NCBI RefSeq assembly: GCF_030384885.1
Contig: NZ_CP128613.1
Length of the DNA: 64,000 nucleotides
Direction: 5' to 3' (one strand)
DNA from: Escherichia coli
GTDB taxonomy: Bacteria > Pseudomonadota > Gammaproteobacteria > Enterobacterales > Enterobacteriaceae
Below the pieces are notes generated by a model, which ran no database searches, had not been told where the DNA came from, and worked only from the letters and a program-made list of their open reading frames with translations. Shown here in pieces: positions 523-32,439 of the stretch. A program made the translations under genes and the position numbers. Every line of letters starts with the position of its first letter. Position 1 is the first letter of the stretch.

Positions 523-550
523 ATGCTCTGGATAAGGATTATCCAATTCT

Positions 551-660
551 AAAAAAAAGCCCGGACGACTGTTCGGGCTTGTCTTTTTATATGTTGGAAA
601 ATCAGTGGCAATGCAATGGCCCAACAGAAAATAAAATCTGTGACAATAAAGGCATATAAC
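551..660 (-). ncRNA. micC: MicC small regulatory RNA (Hfq-dependent, targets ompC)
   Basis: Reverse complement of 551..660 reads GTTATATGCCTTTATTGTCACAGATTTTATTTTCTGTTGGGCCATTGCATTGCC...GCCCGAACAGTCGTCCGGGCTTTTTTTT, matching recalled MicC including the terminator hairpin and U-run; lies between ydbK and ompN, divergent from ompN. Confidence 0.85.
559..578. terminator. bidirectional Rho-independent terminator shared by ydbK and micC
   Basis: GC-rich hairpin gcccggacgactgttcgggc flanked by an A-run on one side and a T-rich tract on the other. Confidence 0.75.
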
Positions 661-887
661 CCGCGCAGAATAACGTATAGCAAATTAAAAGTATAATTTT
701 TATTTTGTATGTATTACCTTCAATACATTCACCATACTTATTATCATTTCATAAGAATTATTTGATTAAGATTTAACTTAAGGCGTAACAAATGATATTT
801 ATCGGCTAACGGAACTTCTCCTTTAGGATGTTTTTACTCCCCGAAGCCGGGGTAAAAGGCAAATAAAATAACTAAAGGATTTATTCA

Positions 888-2080: not shown

Positions 2081-2596
<516 letters not shown>

Positions 2597-2602
2597 CACT
2601 AA

Positions 2603-2629
2603 CGCCCGCACATTGCTGCGGGCTTTTTG
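2603..2629 (+). terminator. Rho-independent terminator downstream of uspF
   Basis: Hairpin cgcccgcacattgctgcgggc followed by tttttg. Confidence 0.7.
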
Positions 2630-2771
2630 ATTCATTTCGCAAATGTGCTGACATTTTCCCCTCTAATCCGTACCATACACGCCACAGTTTTTATATCAGA
2701 TTTCTTATGCTGGGCGTTCCGGCATGACGCATACTCTTCTGATGCCATATAACGAATTGAGTCGCTTTTAA

Positions 2772-3707
2772 ATGTCGCAAAATCAAGAAATTAGTAAGAA
2801 AGAACAATACAATCTGAACAAATTACAAAAACGTCTGCGTCGTAACGTGGGCGAAGCCATTGCTGACTTCAATATGATTGAAGAAGGCGATCGCATCATG
2901 GTTTGCCTCTCCGGGGGTAAAGACAGCTATACCATGCTGGAGATTCTGCGCAATTTGCAGCAAAGCGCGCCAATCAATTTTTCGCTGGTGGCTGTTAACC
3001 TCGATCAAAAGCAACCGGGCTTCCCGGAACACGTTCTGCCCGAGTATCTTGAAAAGCTGGGCATTGAGTACAAGATTGTGGAAGAGAACACTTACGGTAT
3101 CGTGAAAGAGAAGATTCCGGAGGGCAAAACCACTTGCTCACTGTGTTCTCGTCTTCGTCGCGGAATTCTTTACCGTACCGCAACGGAACTGGGAGCGACG
3201 AAGATCGCGCTGGGTCACCATCGTGACGATATCCTGCAAACGTTGTTCTTAAATATGTTCTACGGCGGCAAGATGAAAGGTATGCCTCCGAAACTGATGA
3301 GCGATGATGGCAAACATATTGTGATTCGTCCGCTGGCCTACTGCCGCGAGAAAGATATTCAGCGCTTTGCCGATGCAAAAGCGTTCCCGATTATTCCGTG
3401 CAACCTGTGCGGTTCACAACCTAACCTGCAACGTCAGGTGATTGCTGACATGTTGCGTGACTGGGATAAACGTTATCCGGGGCGTATCGAGACGATGTTC
3501 AGCGCGATGCAGAATGTGGTGCCGTCGCATCTGTGCGATACCAACCTGTTCGATTTCAAAGGCATTACCCACGGTTCTGAAGTGGTTAACGGGGGTGATC
3601 TGGCGTTTGATCGCGAAGAGATCCCTCTACAACCGGCGGGTTGGCAGCCTGAAGAAGATGAAAATCAGTTGGATGAGTTACGACTGAATGTGGTTGAAGT
3701 GAAATAA
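2772..3707 (+). CDS. ttcA: tRNA-cytidine(32) 2-sulfurtransferase TtcA
   Basis: 311 aa; PP-loop motif CLSGGKDS and two CxxC pairs (CSLC, CNLC) typical of TtcA. Confidence 0.92.
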
Positions 3708-3795
3708 CCCGGATAGCGCCCGATGCGCAAGCTTATCGGGCTACTCTTATGGAGGCCGGATAAGACGCGGCCAGCGTCGCATCCGGCAATCCCGA
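3708..3795. repeat. REP (repetitive extragenic palindromic) elements, two units
   Basis: ccggatagcgcccgatgcgcaagcttatcgggc and gccggataagacgcggccagcgtcgcatccggc between convergent ttcA and dbpA. Confidence 0.8.
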
Positions 3796-3835
3796 AGAAG
3801 ATGTTTACTCTTGCACCCTGCGATTCAACATTTCA

Positions 3836-5209
3836 TTATTTTAATAACCGCACCCGGCACGTTTTTCCTTTAATCTTCCCGCCCTGTAACTGTTTCCATG
3901 CTTTATGAGCAACAGCCTGACGCACCGCAACATAGACATGCGCCGGATGCACGGCGATTTTGCCAATATCTGCGCCATCAAGCCCGATATCTCCTGTCAG
4001 CGCACCTAATACATCACCCGGGCGCATTTTGGCTTTTTTCCCGCCATCGATACATAACGTTGCCATTTCTGCTTCCAGCGGCACAATGGAACTATTAACT
4101 GGCGGCGTTTGCCAGTTAAGTTTTATCTGCAACATGTCAGAAATGATATTGGCCCGCTGTGCTTCTTCCGGGGCACAGAAACTGATCGCCAGACCGCTAT
4201 TTCCTGCACGCGCTGTACGCCCGATGCGATGTACATGAACTTCAGGGTCCCACGCCAGTTCAAAGTTCACTACCAGCTCAAGCGATTTAATATCAAGACC
4301 ACGCGCAGCAACATCCGTCGCAACCAGCACACGAGCGCTACCGTTAGCAAAACGTACCAGGGTCTGATCGCGGTCACGTTGCTCCAGATCGCCATGTAAC
4401 GACAATGCACTTTGCCCTATGTCATTCAGCGCGTCGCAGACAGCCTGACAATCTTTTTTGGTATTGCAAAACACCACGCAAGAGGATGGCTGATGCAAAC
4501 TTAATAACCGTTGCAACAGCGGAATTTTGCCTTTGCTGGATGTCTCATAAAATTGTTGTTCAATGGGAGGCAGAGCATCTGTTGAGTCAATTTCAATCGC
4601 CAATGGATCGCGTTGCACTCGTCCGCTGATTGCGGTGATGGCTTCCGGCCAGGTTGCCGAAAACAGAAGCGTCTGTCGAGATGCTGGCGCAAAACGGATA
4701 ACATCATCAATGGCATCGCTAAATCCCATATCCAGCATGCGATCGGCTTCATCCATCACCAGCATATTCAACGCATCCAGTGATACCGTGCCTTTTTGCA
4801 GATGGTCCAGCAAACGACCCGGGGTTGCCACGATAATATGCGGCGCATGTTGCAACGAATCACGCTGCATACCGAACGGTTGACCACCGCACAAAGTCAA
4901 AATTTTGGTATTTGGCAGAAAACGCGCCAGCCGACGCAATTCACCTGCCACCTGATCCGCCAGTTCACGCGTAGGGCACAGCACTAAAGCCTGGGTCTGA
5001 AATAGCGACGCATCAATTTTCTGTAGCAGCCCGAGGCCAAAAGCCGCCGTTTTGCCGCTGCCGGTTTTCGCCTGCACGCGAACATCTTTTCCGGCAAGGA
5101 TCGCCGGAAGCGCGGCGGCCTGCACCGGCGTCATAGTTAAATAACCCAACTCATTAAGGTTCGTGAGTTGGGCGGGAGGCAAAACATTCAGGGTAGAAAA
5201 AGCGGTCAC
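3836..5209 (-). CDS. dbpA: ATP-dependent 23S rRNA-specific DEAD-box RNA helicase DbpA
   Basis: 457 aa; Walker A KTGSGKTAAF, DEAD box (VMDEADRMLDMGF), SAT and HRIGRTAR motifs. Confidence 0.93.
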   Translation of the reverse strand: MTAFSTLNVLPPAQLTNLNELGYLTMTPVQAAALPAILAGKDVRVQAKTGSGKTAAFGLGLLQKIDASLFQTQALVLCPTRELADQVAGELRRLARFLPNTKILTLCGGQPFGMQRDSLQHAPHIIVATPGRLLDHLQKGTVSLDALNMLVMDEADRMLDMGFSDAIDDVIRFAPASRQTLLFSATWPEAITAISGRVQRDPLAIEIDSTDALPPIEQQFYETSSKGKIPLLQRLLSLHQPSSCVVFCNTKKDCQAVCDALNDIGQSALSLHGDLEQRDRDQTLVRFANGSARVLVATDVAARGLDIKSLELVVNFELAWDPEVHVHRIGRTARAGNSGLAISFCAPEEAQRANIISDMLQIKLNWQTPPVNSSIVPLEAEMATLCIDGGKKAKMRPGDVLGALTGDIGLDGADIGKIAVHPAHVYVAVRQAVAHKAWKQLQGGKIKGKTCRVRLLK

Positions 5210-5470
5210 AATCTGTTCTCGTGGTCATCGACGCAAAAATTAGCAAGCGCGTATCCTCGCAGATCTACGCTCACGATGCGACAATTTAATCGGTTCTTCA
5301 TCGGGTGGTGGGTCAGGCATGGGTTGCGGGCGAGGGATTGGATCGGGCACTGGAACAGGATCGCCAGGAATCGGTTCAGGGACAGGAATTTGCAAATAAA
5401 TGAGTGTCGTCATATTTCCCTCCGGTCATTGGGTGGACTCTTAAAGGGTAGACGCTGATATATAACAGGC

Positions 5471-5592
5471 AAAAAAAAGCCGACTCATCAAAGTCGGCGT
5501 CGTACGAATCAATTGTGCTATGCAGTAATTCAAAAAAGGAAGTAAGACAATATGGAGCGCAACGCCCATCGCTTGACGTTGCATTCACCTGC
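5471..5592 (-). ncRNA. fnrS: FnrS small RNA (FNR-activated, anaerobic)
   Basis: Reverse complement reads GCAGGTGAATGCAACGTCAAGCGATGGGCGTTGCGCTCCATATTGTCTTACTTCCTTTTTTGAATTACTGCATAGCACAATTGATTCGTACGACGCCGACTTTGATGAGTCGGCTTTTTTTT, matching recalled FnrS with its terminator; located between zntB and dbpA. Confidence 0.85.
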
Positions 5593-5628
5593 AAGAGAGA
5601 TATTGCCCTGAATGGGTAGAGAGTTTAT

Positions 5629-5642
5629 TGACTTCGCTCAAA
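5629..5642 (-). promoter_or_regulatory. FNR box (TTGA-N6-TCAA) centred about 42 bp upstream of the fnrS 5' end
   Basis: ttgacttcgctcaa matches the FNR half-site palindrome at class II promoter spacing relative to the fnrS start. Confidence 0.65.
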
Positions 5643-5687
5643 CTTTGCGGCGTTTTTGTATACAGATAGTAGGGAAAATTGCTGTTG

Positions 5688-6692
<1,005 letters not shown>

Positions 6693-6925
6693 TTATTTTG
6701 TAGTCTAGCCTTCTGGCCCTGTTACGCAACATCTCATCACCCCATTACCCTGAAATGATTAATAAAATTCTGTCTAAATTGAATACAAAAAGCAAAATGC
6801 TTTTCCATATACAAACCGTGTGAAGTGTTAAATAGCGTCTATCATTATCAGAATTATCTGATCATATGACGTGGCTTTATTGCGATCGGATAGCAACAAA
6901 AATTGATAAAAATAACGGGATCTCA

Positions 6926-8158
6926 ATGATTACGCACAACTTCAATACCCTGGACTTACTCACCAGTCCTGTCTGGATCGTTTCGCCCTTTGAGGAACAG
7001 TTAATTTATGCCAACAGCGCGGCGCGACTGTTGATGCAAGACCTCACGTTTAGTCAGCTACGAACCGGTCCCTATTCCGTCTCCTCACAAAAAGAACTGC
7101 CGAAATACCTCTCCGATCTGCAAAACCAACACGATATTATCGAAATCCTCACCGTTCAACGTAAAGAAGAGGAAACAGCATTAAGCTGTCGGCTTGTTTT
7201 GCGAGAGCTGACAGAAGCAGAACCGGTGATTATTTTCGAAGGTATCGAAGCACCGGCAACGCTGGGTTTAAAAGCCAGTCGCTCGGCAAATTATCAGCGC
7301 AAAAAACAAGGTTTTTATGCGCGCTTTTTTCTGACTAACTCTGCACCAATGTTGTTGATTGACCCCTCACGAGATGGCCAAATCGTCGATGCTAACCTCG
7401 CCGCGCTCAATTTCTATGGTTATAACCATGAAACGATGTGCCAGAAACATACCTGGGAAATTAATATGCTCGGGCGTCGCGTCATGCCTATCATGCATGA
7501 AATCTCGCATTTACCCGGTGGTCATAAGCCTTTGAATTTTGTTCATAAACTGGCGGATGGTTCGACTCGTCATGTGCAGACCTATGCTGGGCCGATTGAA
7601 ATTTATGGCGACAAGCTCATGTTATGTATTGTGCATGATATTACGGAGCAAAAACGGCTGGAGGAGCAGCTGGAACATGCTGCCCACCATGACGCGATGA
7701 CCGGATTACTGAATCGGCGCCAGTTTTATCACATTACCGAGCCAGGCCAAATGCAGCACCTCGCCATCACTCAGGATTACAGCTTATTGCTCATCGACAC
7801 CGATCGTTTTAAACACATTAACGATCTCTATGGGCATTCTAAAGGTGATGAGGTGTTATGCGCCCTCGCCCGCACTCTCGAAAGTTGCGCTCGCAAAGGC
7901 GATTTGGTGTTTCGTTGGGGAGGCGAAGAGTTTGTCTTATTGCTACCAAGAACCCCACTGGATACCGCGCTTTCGCTGGCTGAAACTATCCGCGTAAGCG
8001 TGACAAAAGTGAGTATTTCGGGCTTACCACGCTTTACCGTCAGCATTGGTGTGGCGCATCACGAAGGAAATGAAAGCATCGATGAACTGTTTAAACGCGT
8101 TGATGATGCTTTGTATCGGGCGAAAAATGATGGACGCAACCGCGTGCTGGCGGCATAA
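6926..8158 (+). CDS. dgcM: diguanylate cyclase DgcM (PAS-PAS-GGDEF)
   Basis: 410 aa from the ATG at 6926 (MITHNFNTLDLL); C-terminal GGDEF domain with RWGGEEF active-site motif. Confidence 0.88.
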   Translation: MITHNFNTLDLLTSPVWIVSPFEEQLIYANSAARLLMQDLTFSQLRTGPYSVSSQKELPKYLSDLQNQHDIIEILTVQRKEEETALSCRLVLRELTEAEPVIIFEGIEAPATLGLKASRSANYQRKKQGFYARFFLTNSAPMLLIDPSRDGQIVDANLAALNFYGYNHETMCQKHTWEINMLGRRVMPIMHEISHLPGGHKPLNFVHKLADGSTRHVQTYAGPIEIYGDKLMLCIVHDITEQKRLEEQLEHAAHHDAMTGLLNRRQFYHITEPGQMQHLAITQDYSLLLIDTDRFKHINDLYGHSKGDEVLCALARTLESCARKGDLVFRWGGEEFVLLLPRTPLDTALSLAETIRVSVTKVSISGLPRFTVSIGVAHHEGNESIDELFKRVDDALYRAKNDGRNRVLAA

Positions 8159-8178
8159 GCCGCGGATGCGTCTCGAGA

Positions 8179-8742
8179 TCAACGACTGCGCTTAGCGTGG
8201 CGCTCCCAGTTTTCTTGCTTTGCCTGCGCCGTTTTACGTAGTGCGACGTAACACGCCCCGCTGCCGCCATGATGCGGTAGCGCGGTACAATATGCCTGGA
8301 CATCATCAAATTCGGTCAACCAGCGCGCCACATAGCTGCGGACAATATTGGCATGCGATTTATCTTCCCGCCCTTTACCATGAATAATCAGCACATTACG
8401 CAAACCATCCGCCAGGGCTTGTTGAATGAAACTGAACACCATTTTGCGGCACTCTTCCACCGGCTGGCGCAAAAGATTCAGGCTCGCCTGTTGCGGATAT
8501 TTACCACTGCGCAGCTTATCCAGCACCCCATGTTGCAACCCTTCCCGCCGAAACTCCAGCGGCTGGCTTAGCGGGATGATGTCGAGAAATCCGGTGGTGA
8601 GGAAATTATCAAGTTGCAGCGTGTCGATACGCTGCGGCGCACGTTGGTTACGCGTTGGATGCCAGTGGACATCTGTAGCACGTTTCAGCGGCTGGACATC
8701 TTCCATGGCGTCAAGAAACAGCGATTTGTCGTCAAGGTTCAT
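8179..8742 (-). CDS. smrA: Smr-domain DNA endonuclease SmrA
   Basis: 187 aa, C-terminal Smr domain (LIIHGKGRED...); position between dgcM and abgR. Confidence 0.85.
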   Translation of the reverse strand: MNLDDKSLFLDAMEDVQPLKRATDVHWHPTRNQRAPQRIDTLQLDNFLTTGFLDIIPLSQPLEFRREGLQHGVLDKLRSGKYPQQASLNLLRQPVEECRKMVFSFIQQALADGLRNVLIIHGKGREDKSHANIVRSYVARWLTEFDDVQAYCTALPHHGGSGACYVALRKTAQAKQENWERHAKRSR

Positions 8743-8969
8743 GTTACATCCTCCCGCAATTAAGAGCGCGATATGATAACCAGACCGGGTCGGTCCAACA
8801 ACGTATTACCCAAAATTCCAGTAATAAGTTCCAAATGTTGCCGATATTTTAAGCAAAATGCTTATGCATGATTATTCATTCACGATATTAATAATGTAAC
8901 TTATATTTTCGTGAAATCTGTCACTGAAGAAAATTGGCAACTAAAGGTTAAAACCGTTATAACACAGTC

Positions 8970-9064
8970 ACCGGCGCAGAGGAGACCATGCCGGATTTAA
9001 GACGCGGATGCACTGCTGTGTGTACTGTAGAGTCTGGCGGATGTCGACAGACTCTATTTTTTTA
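8970..9064 (+). ncRNA. mcaS: McaS small RNA (IsrA)
   Basis: ACCGGCGCAGAGGAGACCATGCCGGATTTAAGACGCGGATGCACTGCTGTGTGTACTGTAGAGTCTGGCGGATGTCGACAGACTCTATTTTTTT matches recalled McaS including its terminator; convergent with abgR. Confidence 0.8.
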
Positions 9065-9071
9065 TGCAGTT

Positions 9072-9980
9072 TTAACTTTGCAGATAGCCGCATTCTCGCC
9101 GAAATTGCGTGATTAATGACGCGGTCAGTGGTGTCTGGCGACTATCACGCCGCTGAATCAAATAATAGGCCGCTTTCGGTAAAATTTCGCTAACCGGCAA
9201 CATCACCAGCCCCTGTCCGTGCAAGGGATCGCAGCCCATTTCTTCAGGTAGTATGCTGAGAAAATCGCTTTTTGCCACCAGACTGATACAGGCTGAAAAC
9301 GTCTCGCAGACTACGCCGACCTGTGGCGTTTGCGCCTGATCGTCAAGCAATTCACTCAACTGTTTGTAGTAGCTGCCGTGTGGCGTCGGCATTGTCCAGC
9401 TGTAGTCCAGTAACTGTTTGATCGAACGGGCACCAATGGCGGGATGTCCCGGGCGGCAAAAGATCGCGAATTGCTTTTCCAGTAATTTCTCAAAAGTAAA
9501 TTCGTGGTCGTAGGGTCCCTGATAATAGGTATTGATGGTGAAATCCAGTTCTCCCTGGCGCAATTCATTAATCATCGACACCAGTTGCCCTTCCATAATG
9601 CGTACTTTTACCTGCGGATGCTGCTGATGAAAACGAGATATGACAGCTGGCATCAGACTGCGGGAAATACTGGCCCCCATGCCGATATTAATTTGCCCTG
9701 CCAGTTGCCCTTGTCGTTGGCGAATATCCTCTTGCGCTGCGCGCAGCTCTTCAAGAATAAGACTGGCGTGCTGATAAAAACTTTCGCCGGCATCAGTTAA
9801 CGTCACGCCTTTACTACGGCGAAAAAAGAGTTGCGCCGCTAACCCTTCTTCCAGCTCCTGAATAGATTTACTCAGTGCCGGTTGCGACATATTCAACATG
9901 CGGCTCGCTCCGCGAATGCTGCCCTGACGAGCCACTTCAACAAAAGCCCGAATTTGATGAATTTTTACCTGAAAAGCCAT
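9072..9980 (-). CDS. abgR: LysR-family transcriptional regulator AbgR
   Basis: 302 aa; N-terminal HTH (ASRMLNMSQPALSKSIQELEE) and LysR substrate-binding domain; divergent from abgA. Confidence 0.9.
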   Translation of the reverse strand: MAFQVKIHQIRAFVEVARQGSIRGASRMLNMSQPALSKSIQELEEGLAAQLFFRRSKGVTLTDAGESFYQHASLILEELRAAQEDIRQRQGQLAGQINIGMGASISRSLMPAVISRFHQQHPQVKVRIMEGQLVSMINELRQGELDFTINTYYQGPYDHEFTFEKLLEKQFAIFCRPGHPAIGARSIKQLLDYSWTMPTPHGSYYKQLSELLDDQAQTPQVGVVCETFSACISLVAKSDFLSILPEEMGCDPLHGQGLVMLPVSEILPKAAYYLIQRRDSRQTPLTASLITQFRRECGYLQS

Positions 9981-17356: not shown

Positions 17357-17599
17357 GATGTAATCCTTGTGCAGACAAATTTCTTGTTACCTAACAGTAA
17401 CAATACCATGACATTTCACCGTTGTCTGCTCTGAAAACCTCACCTCTTAGCTGGATTTACAATCAACGCATTGATTAGTTAGCTAATGTTGCTACTTCCT
17501 TCCCTGACTATTGATGATCTGAATGAATTGTCGCGGTAAAATAGCCCCGCCAGGGGTTTCCGGCATGACGACAATTATCTGGAGGAGCCTGATAAAACA

Positions 17600-20290: not shown

Positions 20291-20472
20291 AAGTTACCCT
20301 CAAACCTGCGTTAATAATCATGCGTAATTATTTGTTTCGCCTTAAAGAAATGCAAACAACTTCCGGCAAAAAAGTGATACAAGATCGATAACATAGCGTT
20401 GAAGAAAAGGATTTGATAATCCGCAAAATTTGCACAACACTGCCTGTAATACTTCCTGAACCAGAGACGATC

Positions 20473-22916: not shown

Positions 22917-24959
22917 ATGGATGATAAACAAATTACGGTCTGGCTTAAACACAATTGCTGTTCAACGGACATTCCTGCCATTGCCGAGGCACTAACGAAC
23001 CATGCAGAATGGCTTTTAGAGCTAGCGCCAGATCCTATTGAACAAGGTTGTTCATGTTTACCGCCGACAGCTGCAGCCGGTATTTTTCTTGGCGCAGCGG
23101 CGATGGTTCACTGCGGCGAGGCTAGTGGTGCAGAAACCTGGCTCGAAGCAGCCATTACTGATTACCATTTCTTTAATCCAAATGGATATAGTTCATGGAG
23201 AGGCAGTACGCCTGTTTTTACAGCATTATCGCGTTACCCGGCATTAAGAATGGTGTTATTTAACGCCGCTTGCGCAATGGAAGACTGGAATAAAGCATCC
23301 GCTGTTCTTGAATCGCTTTTCCATGCCAGCGATGTAACGGAAGATAACCCTGTCGCCCCCAATTTTACCCCTTATGCGCTGAAAGCGTTTATCGCGGATT
23401 ACCACCCGTTAGGGCCTGCTTATTATGATGAAACCTGGTTGCTGGCAAAACAAGCGTGGTTAATTAATGCGGGCGTTCTGGATGAGCGAACCTGTAATAC
23501 CTGGAAGCAATATACCCGCCATTTGCGCCATTTGATCCATAATGCACAGTTTTCCGATGCGATCTCTTTTGTACGCAGTAAAAAAGAACCATTAAATCAT
23601 ATCCATACCTACTCAGACTTTTATCTCTATGCGATTGGTTTATTTTCTTCTACTGATCAGCTAAGTGAAGCGCTAACCTGGGTAAAACAATTAATCCGCA
23701 ACAATGATGGTCATTTCCATGATCTTTTCGTTTCAACTGGCGCAAAGCGCCGAATAAAGCCTGAACTTAGTACCTTGCTGAATAATCTCTTGTACAGCGC
23801 AGAGTTTCAGGCGTTGCAGGATAAATATCTCACCGTCGGACATGATGTTGTGCATTCTGGTCCCTTCATGTCACTTTATGAAAAGGTTCTTGGCGGTAAG
23901 TCCCGAAAGCGCTGCGCGATTAGTCGAAAATTAATCTCACCCGGCGAAGCGGTTTATGAATATCGTCAGCTGGATAGTGTGGAATATATTGCAGCGAAAG
24001 CGGCCTTTCAGACATCTGAGCTAAATAATATCGCCCACCGGCATCATAATGATAGTTATCAGTGGCATGAATTTGCCGTCCAATGGCCTCGTCGGGGTTC
24101 ACTTTCTCACCCAGATATTGCCCGTTATTTGTTTGAGCGCCAGGAAGGAAAATGCTTTGATGCCGCAGAGTTTATACAACTGATTGCGGAACCGTTTGTC
24201 TTTCCGATGCGTTTCATATGGGTTGCCGGGTTGTCCTTTGAATTACATCAGTATCCGGATGCCTATTTCGTAAATGACAATATGGCGGGTGAATTTGTTA
24301 ATCTCTGCTGGATGGCTATGAAATGCGGACATGCTGGCGACATTTTCAAACAACTGGCCCACGAGCCGCATGACGTTGCTGACCCTATTTACGCCATGCT
24401 CGCCACGTTTGACCGCGCTGATTGCCGTAGCGCCGCCGCCGCGCACTTTGGACAACCGGAACTACCGGAAATAATGGCACTGGCTTTCAGTTCGAGGTTA
24501 TCGCTCGACAGCGTCCTTACCATCGCTGAGTTTGGTAAAAATCAGCCGCGATTTTCACATGCGCTAGCAACGGCCCTCCTGCGTTACAACCTGCACATCT
24601 ACTCAAACTATATGCCGCAGGTTAACTGGTACCTTCAGGGGCTGGAACACTATGCTTTGGCAAAAGGCGGTCAACTTTTAAATTTCTTTGTGCATATTCC
24701 AGAACAAATTCCCGTTCTGGCGACCATGCTGGAACATGGCGTATTAGTGCGTGGGATCGGTGAAGGTGCCTATGATGGTTATGATAATTCAGCAAATTCA
24801 TTTCATCATGCCGCCGTGATGCACTGCCTCACGCACGCGCCGGAAAAAGTCCGCTACTGGATGGAAACACCCTGGATTCAGAACTATTTAGTGAATGCGC
24901 CGCTGCGTCAAACGGCGCGCCATGTGGAAGCCTGGCATAAAAAGTTTGGCATCAAATGA
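22917..24959 (+). CDS. hypothetical protein, about 680 aa, no family recognised; probably cytoplasmic, Cys/His-rich N-terminus
   Basis: Single long ORF (table entry 22863..24959, which starts at a TTG); the ATG at 22917 has ggag 11 nt upstream. No signal peptide or TM segment by eye. Sits between convergent tpx and tyrR where recalled K-12 order has no gene. Confidence 0.6.
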   Translation: MDDKQITVWLKHNCCSTDIPAIAEALTNHAEWLLELAPDPIEQGCSCLPPTAAAGIFLGAAAMVHCGEASGAETWLEAAITDYHFFNPNGYSSWRGSTPVFTALSRYPALRMVLFNAACAMEDWNKASAVLESLFHASDVTEDNPVAPNFTPYALKAFIADYHPLGPAYYDETWLLAKQAWLINAGVLDERTCNTWKQYTRHLRHLIHNAQFSDAISFVRSKKEPLNHIHTYSDFYLYAIGLFSSTDQLSEALTWVKQLIRNNDGHFHDLFVSTGAKRRIKPELSTLLNNLLYSAEFQALQDKYLTVGHDVVHSGPFMSLYEKVLGGKSRKRCAISRKLISPGEAVYEYRQLDSVEYIAAKAAFQTSELNNIAHRHHNDSYQWHEFAVQWPRRGSLSHPDIARYLFERQEGKCFDAAEFIQLIAEPFVFPMRFIWVAGLSFELHQYPDAYFVNDNMAGEFVNLCWMAMKCGHAGDIFKQLAHEPHDVADPIYAMLATFDRADCRSAAAAHFGQPELPEIMALAFSSRLSLDSVLTIAEFGKNQPRFSHALATALLRYNLHIYSNYMPQVNWYLQGLEHYALAKGGQLLNFFVHIPEQIPVLATMLEHGVLVRGIGEGAYDGYDNSANSFHHAAVMHCLTHAPEKVRYWMETPWIQNYLVNAPLRQTARHVEAWHKKFGIK

Positions 24960-31343: not shown

Positions 31344-32426
31344 TTAGCGAATTGCTATTTCCGTTTCTGCATCAAAGAAATGACATTTGGTCATATCGAA
31401 ATGAATAGTGACGTTTTCTCCTGCATGATAATCATTTAACGCACCGGCACGGACCACCAGCTCGTGCCCCCCAACCGTGGTGTAGAGCATAAATTCCGCA
31501 CCGGTTAATTCCGCCACGCTAATTTTGGCGGAAATGTTATTTTCCTCTTGCGCATCCGGATGAATATCTTCCGGGCGTATTCCCATCACAATGGGTTTAT
31601 GCAAACTTTCCTGCGTTTTCAGAACCGCTAATTTATCTTCGGGAATGGTTAATTTAAGCGTTTCCGTAACGAATTTATCGCCATCGATCGTGCCGCGAAT
31701 AAAATTCATTGCTGGTGACCCAATAAATCCGGCAACAAACATATTCGCCGGTTGGTTATAGACCGTTTTCGGCGCACCGACCTGCTGAACAATCCCATCC
31801 TTCATAATGACAATCCGCGTCGCCATGGTCATCGCTTCGGTCTGATCGTGGGTCACGTAGATCATGGTGGTGTTCAGTTTCTGATGCAGCTTGCTGATTT
31901 CCGCTCGCATTTGTACGCGCAGCTTGGCATCCAGGTTAGAGAGCGGTTCATCCATTAAAAACACGCCCGCTTCGCGCACAATCGCCCGTCCGAGCGCCAC
32001 ACGCTGGCGTTGCCCGCCGGAAAGCGCGCCCGGCTTGCGTTTCAGGTACTCACGCAGGCCGAGGATTTGCGCCGCCCAGTTAACCCGCTCATCAATCACC
32101 TCTTTGGCGATTTTTTGCATCTTCAGGCCAAACGCCATGTTGTCGTAGACCGTCATATGCGGATACAGCGCGTAGTTCTGGAAAACCATCGCGATATTGC
32201 GCGCTTTGGCCGGAACGTCGTTCATTCGTTTGCCGTCGATCAACAGATCGCCGCCGCTGATCTCCTCAAGCCCGGCAATCATACGCAGCGTCGTCGATTT
32301 ACCGCAGCCCGACGGACCGACAAACACGATGAACTCTTTATCGGCAATCTCCAGGTTGAAGTCCTTCACCACATGCACCTGGTTATCGTAGATCTTTTGA
32401 ATATGTTGTAACGAAAGCTGTGCCAT
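31344..32426 (-). CDS. ycjV: ABC transporter ATP-binding protein (MalK-like), apparently intact
   Basis: 360 aa; Walker A GPSGCGKST, signature LSGGQRQR, Walker B FLMDEP. Confidence 0.88.
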   Translation of the reverse strand: MAQLSLQHIQKIYDNQVHVVKDFNLEIADKEFIVFVGPSGCGKSTTLRMIAGLEEISGGDLLIDGKRMNDVPAKARNIAMVFQNYALYPHMTVYDNMAFGLKMQKIAKEVIDERVNWAAQILGLREYLKRKPGALSGGQRQRVALGRAIVREAGVFLMDEPLSNLDAKLRVQMRAEISKLHQKLNTTMIYVTHDQTEAMTMATRIVIMKDGIVQQVGAPKTVYNQPANMFVAGFIGSPAMNFIRGTIDGDKFVTETLKLTIPEDKLAVLKTQESLHKPIVMGIRPEDIHPDAQEENNISAKISVAELTGAEFMLYTTVGGHELVVRAGALNDYHAGENVTIHFDMTKCHFFDAETEIAIR

Positions 32427-32439
32427 GTTGATTCCTTTG

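Follow-up and report, generated by a model that had tools for sequence, protein, structure and literature searches.

Positions 2796-2821 of the window are almost certainly the unoccupied attB of Rac-type lambdoid prophages, with uspF, the spacer and ttcA in their native, uninterrupted state. The window, i.e. the whole 64,000-nt stretch of DNA analysed here, is part of an E. coli chromosome (GCF_030384885.1, NZ_CP128613.1) and matched strain 2013C-4282 (NZ_CP027579.1) over its full length at 99.6% identity. Its gene run starts with the end of nifJ/ydbK, followed by ompN, uspF, ttcA, dbpA, zntB, dgcM and smrA, and continues with abg genes, ogt, fnr, sap genes and fabI. The features of the junction are the following:

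2162..2596, plus strand: uspF (universal stress protein F), an ORF named uspF in the 2013C-4282 annotation; left neighbour of the site
2597..2771, plus strand: native uspF-ttcA spacer of 175 bp, contiguous with the uspF-side DNA of K-12 and holding the native ttcA upstream region
2604..2633, plus strand: terminator-like hairpin and T run just 3' of uspF, from a consensus scan only
2648..2676, plus strand: weak sigma-70-like promoter candidate 5' of ttcA (CTGACA-17-TACCAT, 9/12 matches)
2772..3707, plus strand: ttcA, intact, with an ATG start and the native ('ancient', TtcA') N-terminus MSQNQEIS; 311-aa ORF, annotated ttcA
2772..2822, plus strand: stretch equivalent to ttcC', the native ttcA 5' end that is cut off from its gene in K-12, from alignment
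2779..2821, plus strand: extended att similarity, where the window aligns with both K-12 junctions
2796..2821, plus strand: 26-bp predicted attB core AAGAAAGAACAATACAATCTGAACAA, within ttcA codons 9-17 (nt 25-50); 25/26 bases match the K-12 core
2813, plus strand: synonymous T/C polymorphism in the core (AAT vs AAC, Asn14); T, the minority allele, in the window and C in both K-12 att copies

Both genes bordering the junction displayed the expected domain signatures. The uspF product matched the Pfam Usp family (E 3.6e-31). The ttcA product is predicted to be the PP-loop tRNA 2-thiocytidine(32) synthetase TtcA: it matched PF01171 (PP-loop ATP_bind_3; E 7.7e-14, 52.3 bits vs a cut-off of 27), carried the SGGKDS motif at residues 47-52 and was full-length, its 311 aa equalling the K-12 protein (936-nt gene). 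The spacer between them is ordinary native DNA, distinct from the att site. The hairpin following uspF has a stem of 7 bp, 6 of them G-C, GCCCGCACATTGCTGCGGGC, then TTTTTGATTC. The promoter scan of the spacer returned 1 candidate vs 0.6 expected by chance, which is not above chance. Likewise, Rfam and tRNA scans yielded nothing at the uspF-ttcA junction and no tRNA gene in the window. Elsewhere, MicC (543-663, minus strand), FnrS (5475-5592, minus strand) and McaS (8970-9065, plus strand) occurred at their usual K-12 positions as full-length Rfam matches, which is ordinary.

The organization of this locus in K-12 MG1655 (NC_000913.3) provided the reference. There, the cryptic prophage Rac (1411899-1434958, ~23 kb) is located between ttcA (b1344) and the ttcC' pseudogene (b4638), a 51-nt fragment lying 176 bp from uspF (b1376). 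According to the annotation, intR, a tyrosine recombinase gene, immediately precedes ttcA and has the same orientation. In this lysogen ttcA is thus preceded by intR and 51 bp of phage DNA, the prophage parting the native spacer from ttcA. More generally, lysogens such as K-12 display an intR-bearing phage that separates uspF from ttcA and has a copy of the 26-bp core on either side.

The window was compared with K-12 by megablast, and the junctions were then aligned in register in a three-way alignment. Positions 4-2821 matched the uspF side of K-12 (98.1% identity) and positions 2779-9721 its ttcA side (97.4% identity). Both blocks were collinear and overlapped by 43 bp at 2779-2821, the 23 kb of Rac that lie between them in K-12 being missing from the window. 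The uspF-side junction of K-12 tracked the window up to 2821 and then passed into phage DNA (GTAAGGGC); the ttcA-side junction consisted of phage DNA ending in AATAATGCAAGAAAATCAACAAATTACA and tracked the window from 2796 on. The sole stretch exactly common to both K-12 junctions was a 26-bp sequence, AAGAAAGAACAATACAACCTGAACAA, corresponding to window 2796-2821. The K-12 ttcC' pseudogene matched window 2772-2822 at all positions but two, having C at 2813 (T in the window) and G at 2822 (A in the window). In genomes where the locus is split, the ttcA-side match began at query position 690, i.e. at window position 2779.

These comparisons agreed with most of what the sequence-only reading had put forward. 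Its statement that Rac separates uspF from ttcA in K-12 is confirmed by the NC_000913.3 annotation, and its gap of ~175 bp is exact, since uspF ends at 2596 and the ttcA ATG is at 2772. The interval that it gave for the site, 2597-2800, points to the correct locus but needs correction, as the alignment with K-12 located the core at 2796-2821 and only the first 5 core bases fall inside that interval.

The same 26 bp, at ttcA nt 25-50, are labelled 'attP' in GenBank entry KU052037.1 (phage Rac-SA53). A free-phage attP was sought by comparing the reconstructed K-12 attP with a phage collection, in which no record spanned both arms contiguously over a long stretch. Because no such phage record was found, the attP reconstruction rests on the two junctions and not on a sequenced circular phage. 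The best hits were prophage-derived entries with host DNA: KU052037.1 includes 771 nt of host ttcA, and ON032529.1 ('Salmonella phage SPF_0923') includes host ydbK, ompN and uspF, then sitABC. They are therefore prophage excerpts whose record ends are not phage termini.

The N-terminus of TtcA also set the window apart from K-12. The window protein begins like the K-12 ttcC' fragment (MSQNQEIS type), whereas K-12 TtcA begins with MQENQQITKKEQ, which is phage-supplied; the two proteins differ at residues 2, 3, 6 and 8 (MSQNQEIS vs MQENQQIT), i.e. by S2Q, Q3E, E6Q and S8T from native to lysogen TtcA. At the DNA level, the intR-proximal end of the phage mimics the ttcA start (ATG + 24 bases, 7 unlike native), and the 7 phage-type differences fall at 2775-2778, 2787 and 2794-2795, upstream of the core. 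All 7 positions (2775-2795) were in the native state in the window, and no phage-derived base was visible.

These observations fit the work of Liu et al. (2015, Sci Rep 5:16074, PMC4632033), which showed that Rac excises in K-12 and that YdaQ/XisR, which binds attR, is its excisionase. Owing to an imperfect match between the left and right attachment sites, excision alters TtcA at four N-terminal residues, and TtcA in strains lacking Rac-like prophages is of this post-excision 'ancient' type, TtcA' (PMC4632033). The window TtcA has precisely the TtcA' form obtained by these authors after Rac excision. In their experiments, TtcA' gave a lower metabolic rate under carbenicillin than lysogen TtcA, and overproduced ancestral TtcA was reported to cope less well with carbenicillin (PMC4632033).

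No phage material was detected around the site. The Rac interior gave no match in the 64-kb window by blastn (word size 11, E<=1e-3), nor did any of 24 Rac proteins, including IntR, XisR, RecE, RecT, KilR and RacR, by tblastn (E<=1e-3). With up to 3 mismatches allowed, the 26-bp core was found only once, so the window holds no att duplication. The annotation of 2013C-4282 over the matching region consists of housekeeping genes only. Signs that would speak for an occupied site, namely integrase or Rac sequence at 2597-2821 and a second core nearby, were both looked for and neither was found. The locus, the core, its single copy free of prophage DNA and the native N-terminus all take the form that an unoccupied attB displays at the sequence level. 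The earlier proposals of a window devoid of integrase, phage genes and att duplication, and of a native N-terminus, were both borne out, the former by the blastn, tblastn and core searches, the latter by identity with K-12 ttcC' and difference from K-12 TtcA. The view of the junction as an empty Rac site is likewise supported by collinearity with both K-12 flanks, the absence of Rac and this N-terminus.

The following scheme would connect the two states of the locus. By analogy with lambda-type integrases, IntR is expected to perform strand exchange within the 26-bp identity. Since the phage brings a mimic of the ttcA start with it, ttcA is still a complete gene after insertion, with four residues altered and phage DNA replacing the native spacer upstream; the native ttcA start is stranded beside uspF as the 51-nt ttcC'. 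Excision by IntR and XisR would, on the same analogy, reverse the insertion and restore the exact window sequence; this reversal was confirmed by experiment for K-12 (Liu et al. 2015, PMC4632033). With no prophage present, ttcA would be transcribed from its own spacer, vs intR and 51 bp of phage DNA upstream in lysogens. The window accordingly encodes the ancestral TtcA, and its ttcA retains the native upstream region. As a target for future integration, the attB looks competent, and the same core allele (T2813) occurs in prophage junctions of other genomes.

The distribution of junction states was examined in 5426 complete E. coli genomes. An uninterrupted uspF-ttcA junction, as in the window, was present in 2487 of them (46%), a K-12-type intR directly upstream of ttcA in 1860 (34%) and a 2.3-kb decayed remnant between uspF and ttcA in 1044 (19%), the three states together covering 5391 of the 5426 genomes. 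An independent count of uspF-side junctions (1822 + 42 = 1864) agreed with the 1860 intR-ttcA junctions. The empty junction is the commonest single state and in no way unusual. In the E. coli genome collection, 10 matches to the uspF-ttcA query were located on plasmid-labelled records.

In the remnant class, the fixed 2.3-kb relic combines a sit-like metal-transporter pseudogene with a DUF1627 fragment and the final 231 nt of a Rac-type integrase gene. The ttcC' fragment and ~95 bp of native spacer are deleted, homology to the window ending at 2676, and ttcA retains the phage-type N-terminus. Strain YP3 provides an example, with the remnant at 5959-8283 of the locus, corresponding to window 2676/2779. 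This class may account for the 'exception' recorded in 2015, CFT073, which has a phage-type N-terminus and no prophage (Liu et al. 2015, PMC4632033). A different disruption was encountered among the genomes outside the three classes, in strain CAVP776, where an IS1 (8695-9408 of the locus) is inserted 13 bases into ttcA, at window position 2784. Beyond it lies unrelated DNA (an MFS transporter, a BCCT transporter and DUF977/DUF1627 phage genes), which indicates that the junction was broken by an IS-associated rearrangement rather than by a simple Rac insertion. Occupancy also varied within serotype O157:H7: strains 1130 and Balcarce_24.2 displayed empty sites, and other O157:H7 strains carried intR at ttcA (PNUSAE146131 in our comparison), a mixture that points to recent gain or loss.

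How the site came to be empty is a separate question. It might once have been occupied and then cured by precise IntR/XisR excision, and would in that case be secondarily empty; excision of Rac from K-12 regenerates exactly the window sequence and the TtcA N-terminus, and occupancy is patchy within the single serotype O157:H7, which implies frequent gain and/or loss. Yet precise excision is scarless, which makes a cured site indistinguishable by sequence from a never-occupied one, and the seven positions at 2775-2795 that distinguish phage-type from native DNA are all native, without a phage-derived base. We regard a cured site as unlikely, albeit clearly more plausible than the readings discussed below.

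The base at 2813 offered another possible reason for an empty site. This position lies within the 26-bp core and is C in both K-12 att copies; a sample of 8 empty sites had T in 2 cases and C in 6. Both alleles were counted in the 5426 genomes with 55-nt probes, designed in such a way that every 28-base BLAST seed must include the polymorphic base. The T allele was recorded in 136 genomes, 42 times as a uspF-side prophage junction, and the C allele in 3934 genomes, 1822 times within a junction. Junctions accordingly made up 31% of T genomes (42/136) vs 46% of C genomes (1822/3934), these being raw frequencies confounded by phylogeny. In strain L73, the core with T leads into ynaM, ydfK, pinR, tfaR and a tail-fibre gene, a gene order identifying a genuine Rac-type prophage at this core.

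It is very improbable that T2813 renders attB refractory to Rac-type integration and that the site is empty for this reason. The location of the base within the core, its divergence from K-12 and the lower junction share of T genomes would favour such an effect, but 42 genomes carry T in a full uspF-side prophage junction, as verified in L73, so T2813 is no block to lysogeny; moreover, most empty sites carry C (~2100 genomes), and phylogeny confounds the raw difference in frequency. T2813 was hence rejected as the reason for the empty site. A milder version, in which T2813 would reduce Rac-type integration efficiency without abolishing it and thereby define a partly refractory attB allele, seems highly doubtful as well; if true, it would make T2813 a host-side polymorphism shaping which strains gain Rac-like prophages.

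Lastly, a decayed Rac remnant in place of a clean empty site has practically no chance of being the correct description, for although remnants are common (~19% of genomes, 2.3 kb, phage-type TtcA N-terminus), the window has only its 175-bp native spacer and native N-terminus, with no integrase fragment and no extra DNA, and the K-12 alignments refuted it.

Other differences from K-12 were recorded further along the window, the most unusual item being unrelated to the empty Rac site. It is a 680-aa ORF (22917-24959, plus strand) between tpx and tyrR, two genes only 43 bp apart in K-12; the ~2.2-kb tpx-tyrR insert occurred in 30 of the 5426 complete E. coli genomes. The ORF had no Pfam, NCBIfam or PADLOC match, and its relatives amounted to 8 protein clusters among 5.8 billion, all 'hypothetical' and from E. 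coli and Salmonella. The one Salmonella homologue examined for its context (P0004) is located in an island that also holds a TsiV-family (type VI immunity) gene, DUF4034 and DUF1266 genes, and fragments of IS elements. The AlphaFold2 model was all-helical and poor (pLDDT 60), and Foldseek against the PDB returned generic helical-repeat matches only, no full-length match reaching a TM-score of 0.2. The remaining differences lie at window 17357-17599, 20291-20472 and 31345-32427. Compared with K-12, the window is without the IS5 between ynaI and ynaJ and without the ymjC-ymjD-ycjY-pgrR block between mppA and mpaA, and its ycjV (ABC transporter ATPase) is intact vs a pseudogene in K-12.

The empty ttcA site is real, ordinary and known, its essentials having been described by Liu et al. 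(2015, PMC4632033). The empty site itself, the replacement of the TtcA N-terminus by a phage-borne one and the ttcC' relic have all been in print since 2015 and form part of the K-12 annotation. The present case has little significance beyond correct annotation, apart from designating the strain as a potential recipient for Rac-type phages at the ttcA site. The 2015 paper surveyed 27 strains (PMC4632033), a survey that the census widens to 5426 genomes. Small additions are the three-state census, the remnant class and a minority core allele compatible with lysogeny.

The closest known counterpart of the unoccupied attB described here is that of K-12 after Rac excision (ttcA' allele; Liu et al. 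2015, PMC4632033). Both have the same uspF-ttcA locus, the same core position (ttcA nt 25-50) and the same start of TtcA, and both lack prophage DNA. They differ by T instead of C at 2813, which is synonymous, and by window flanks that are 97-98% identical rather than identical to K-12, indicating a different E. coli lineage. The same ttcA target is used by CP-933R (EDL933), Sp10 (Sakai) and Rac-SA53 (KU052037.1); their sites are occupied, the window being the empty counterpart. A related arrangement is encountered at icd, where phage 21 and e14 integrate at the 3' end and carry a replacement end, the host gene staying intact. In both systems the phage duplicates the end of the gene that it interrupts. 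Yet, unlike icd, where the 3' end is replaced, ttcA has its 5' end replaced, so that insertion alters the upstream control region as well as the N-terminus.
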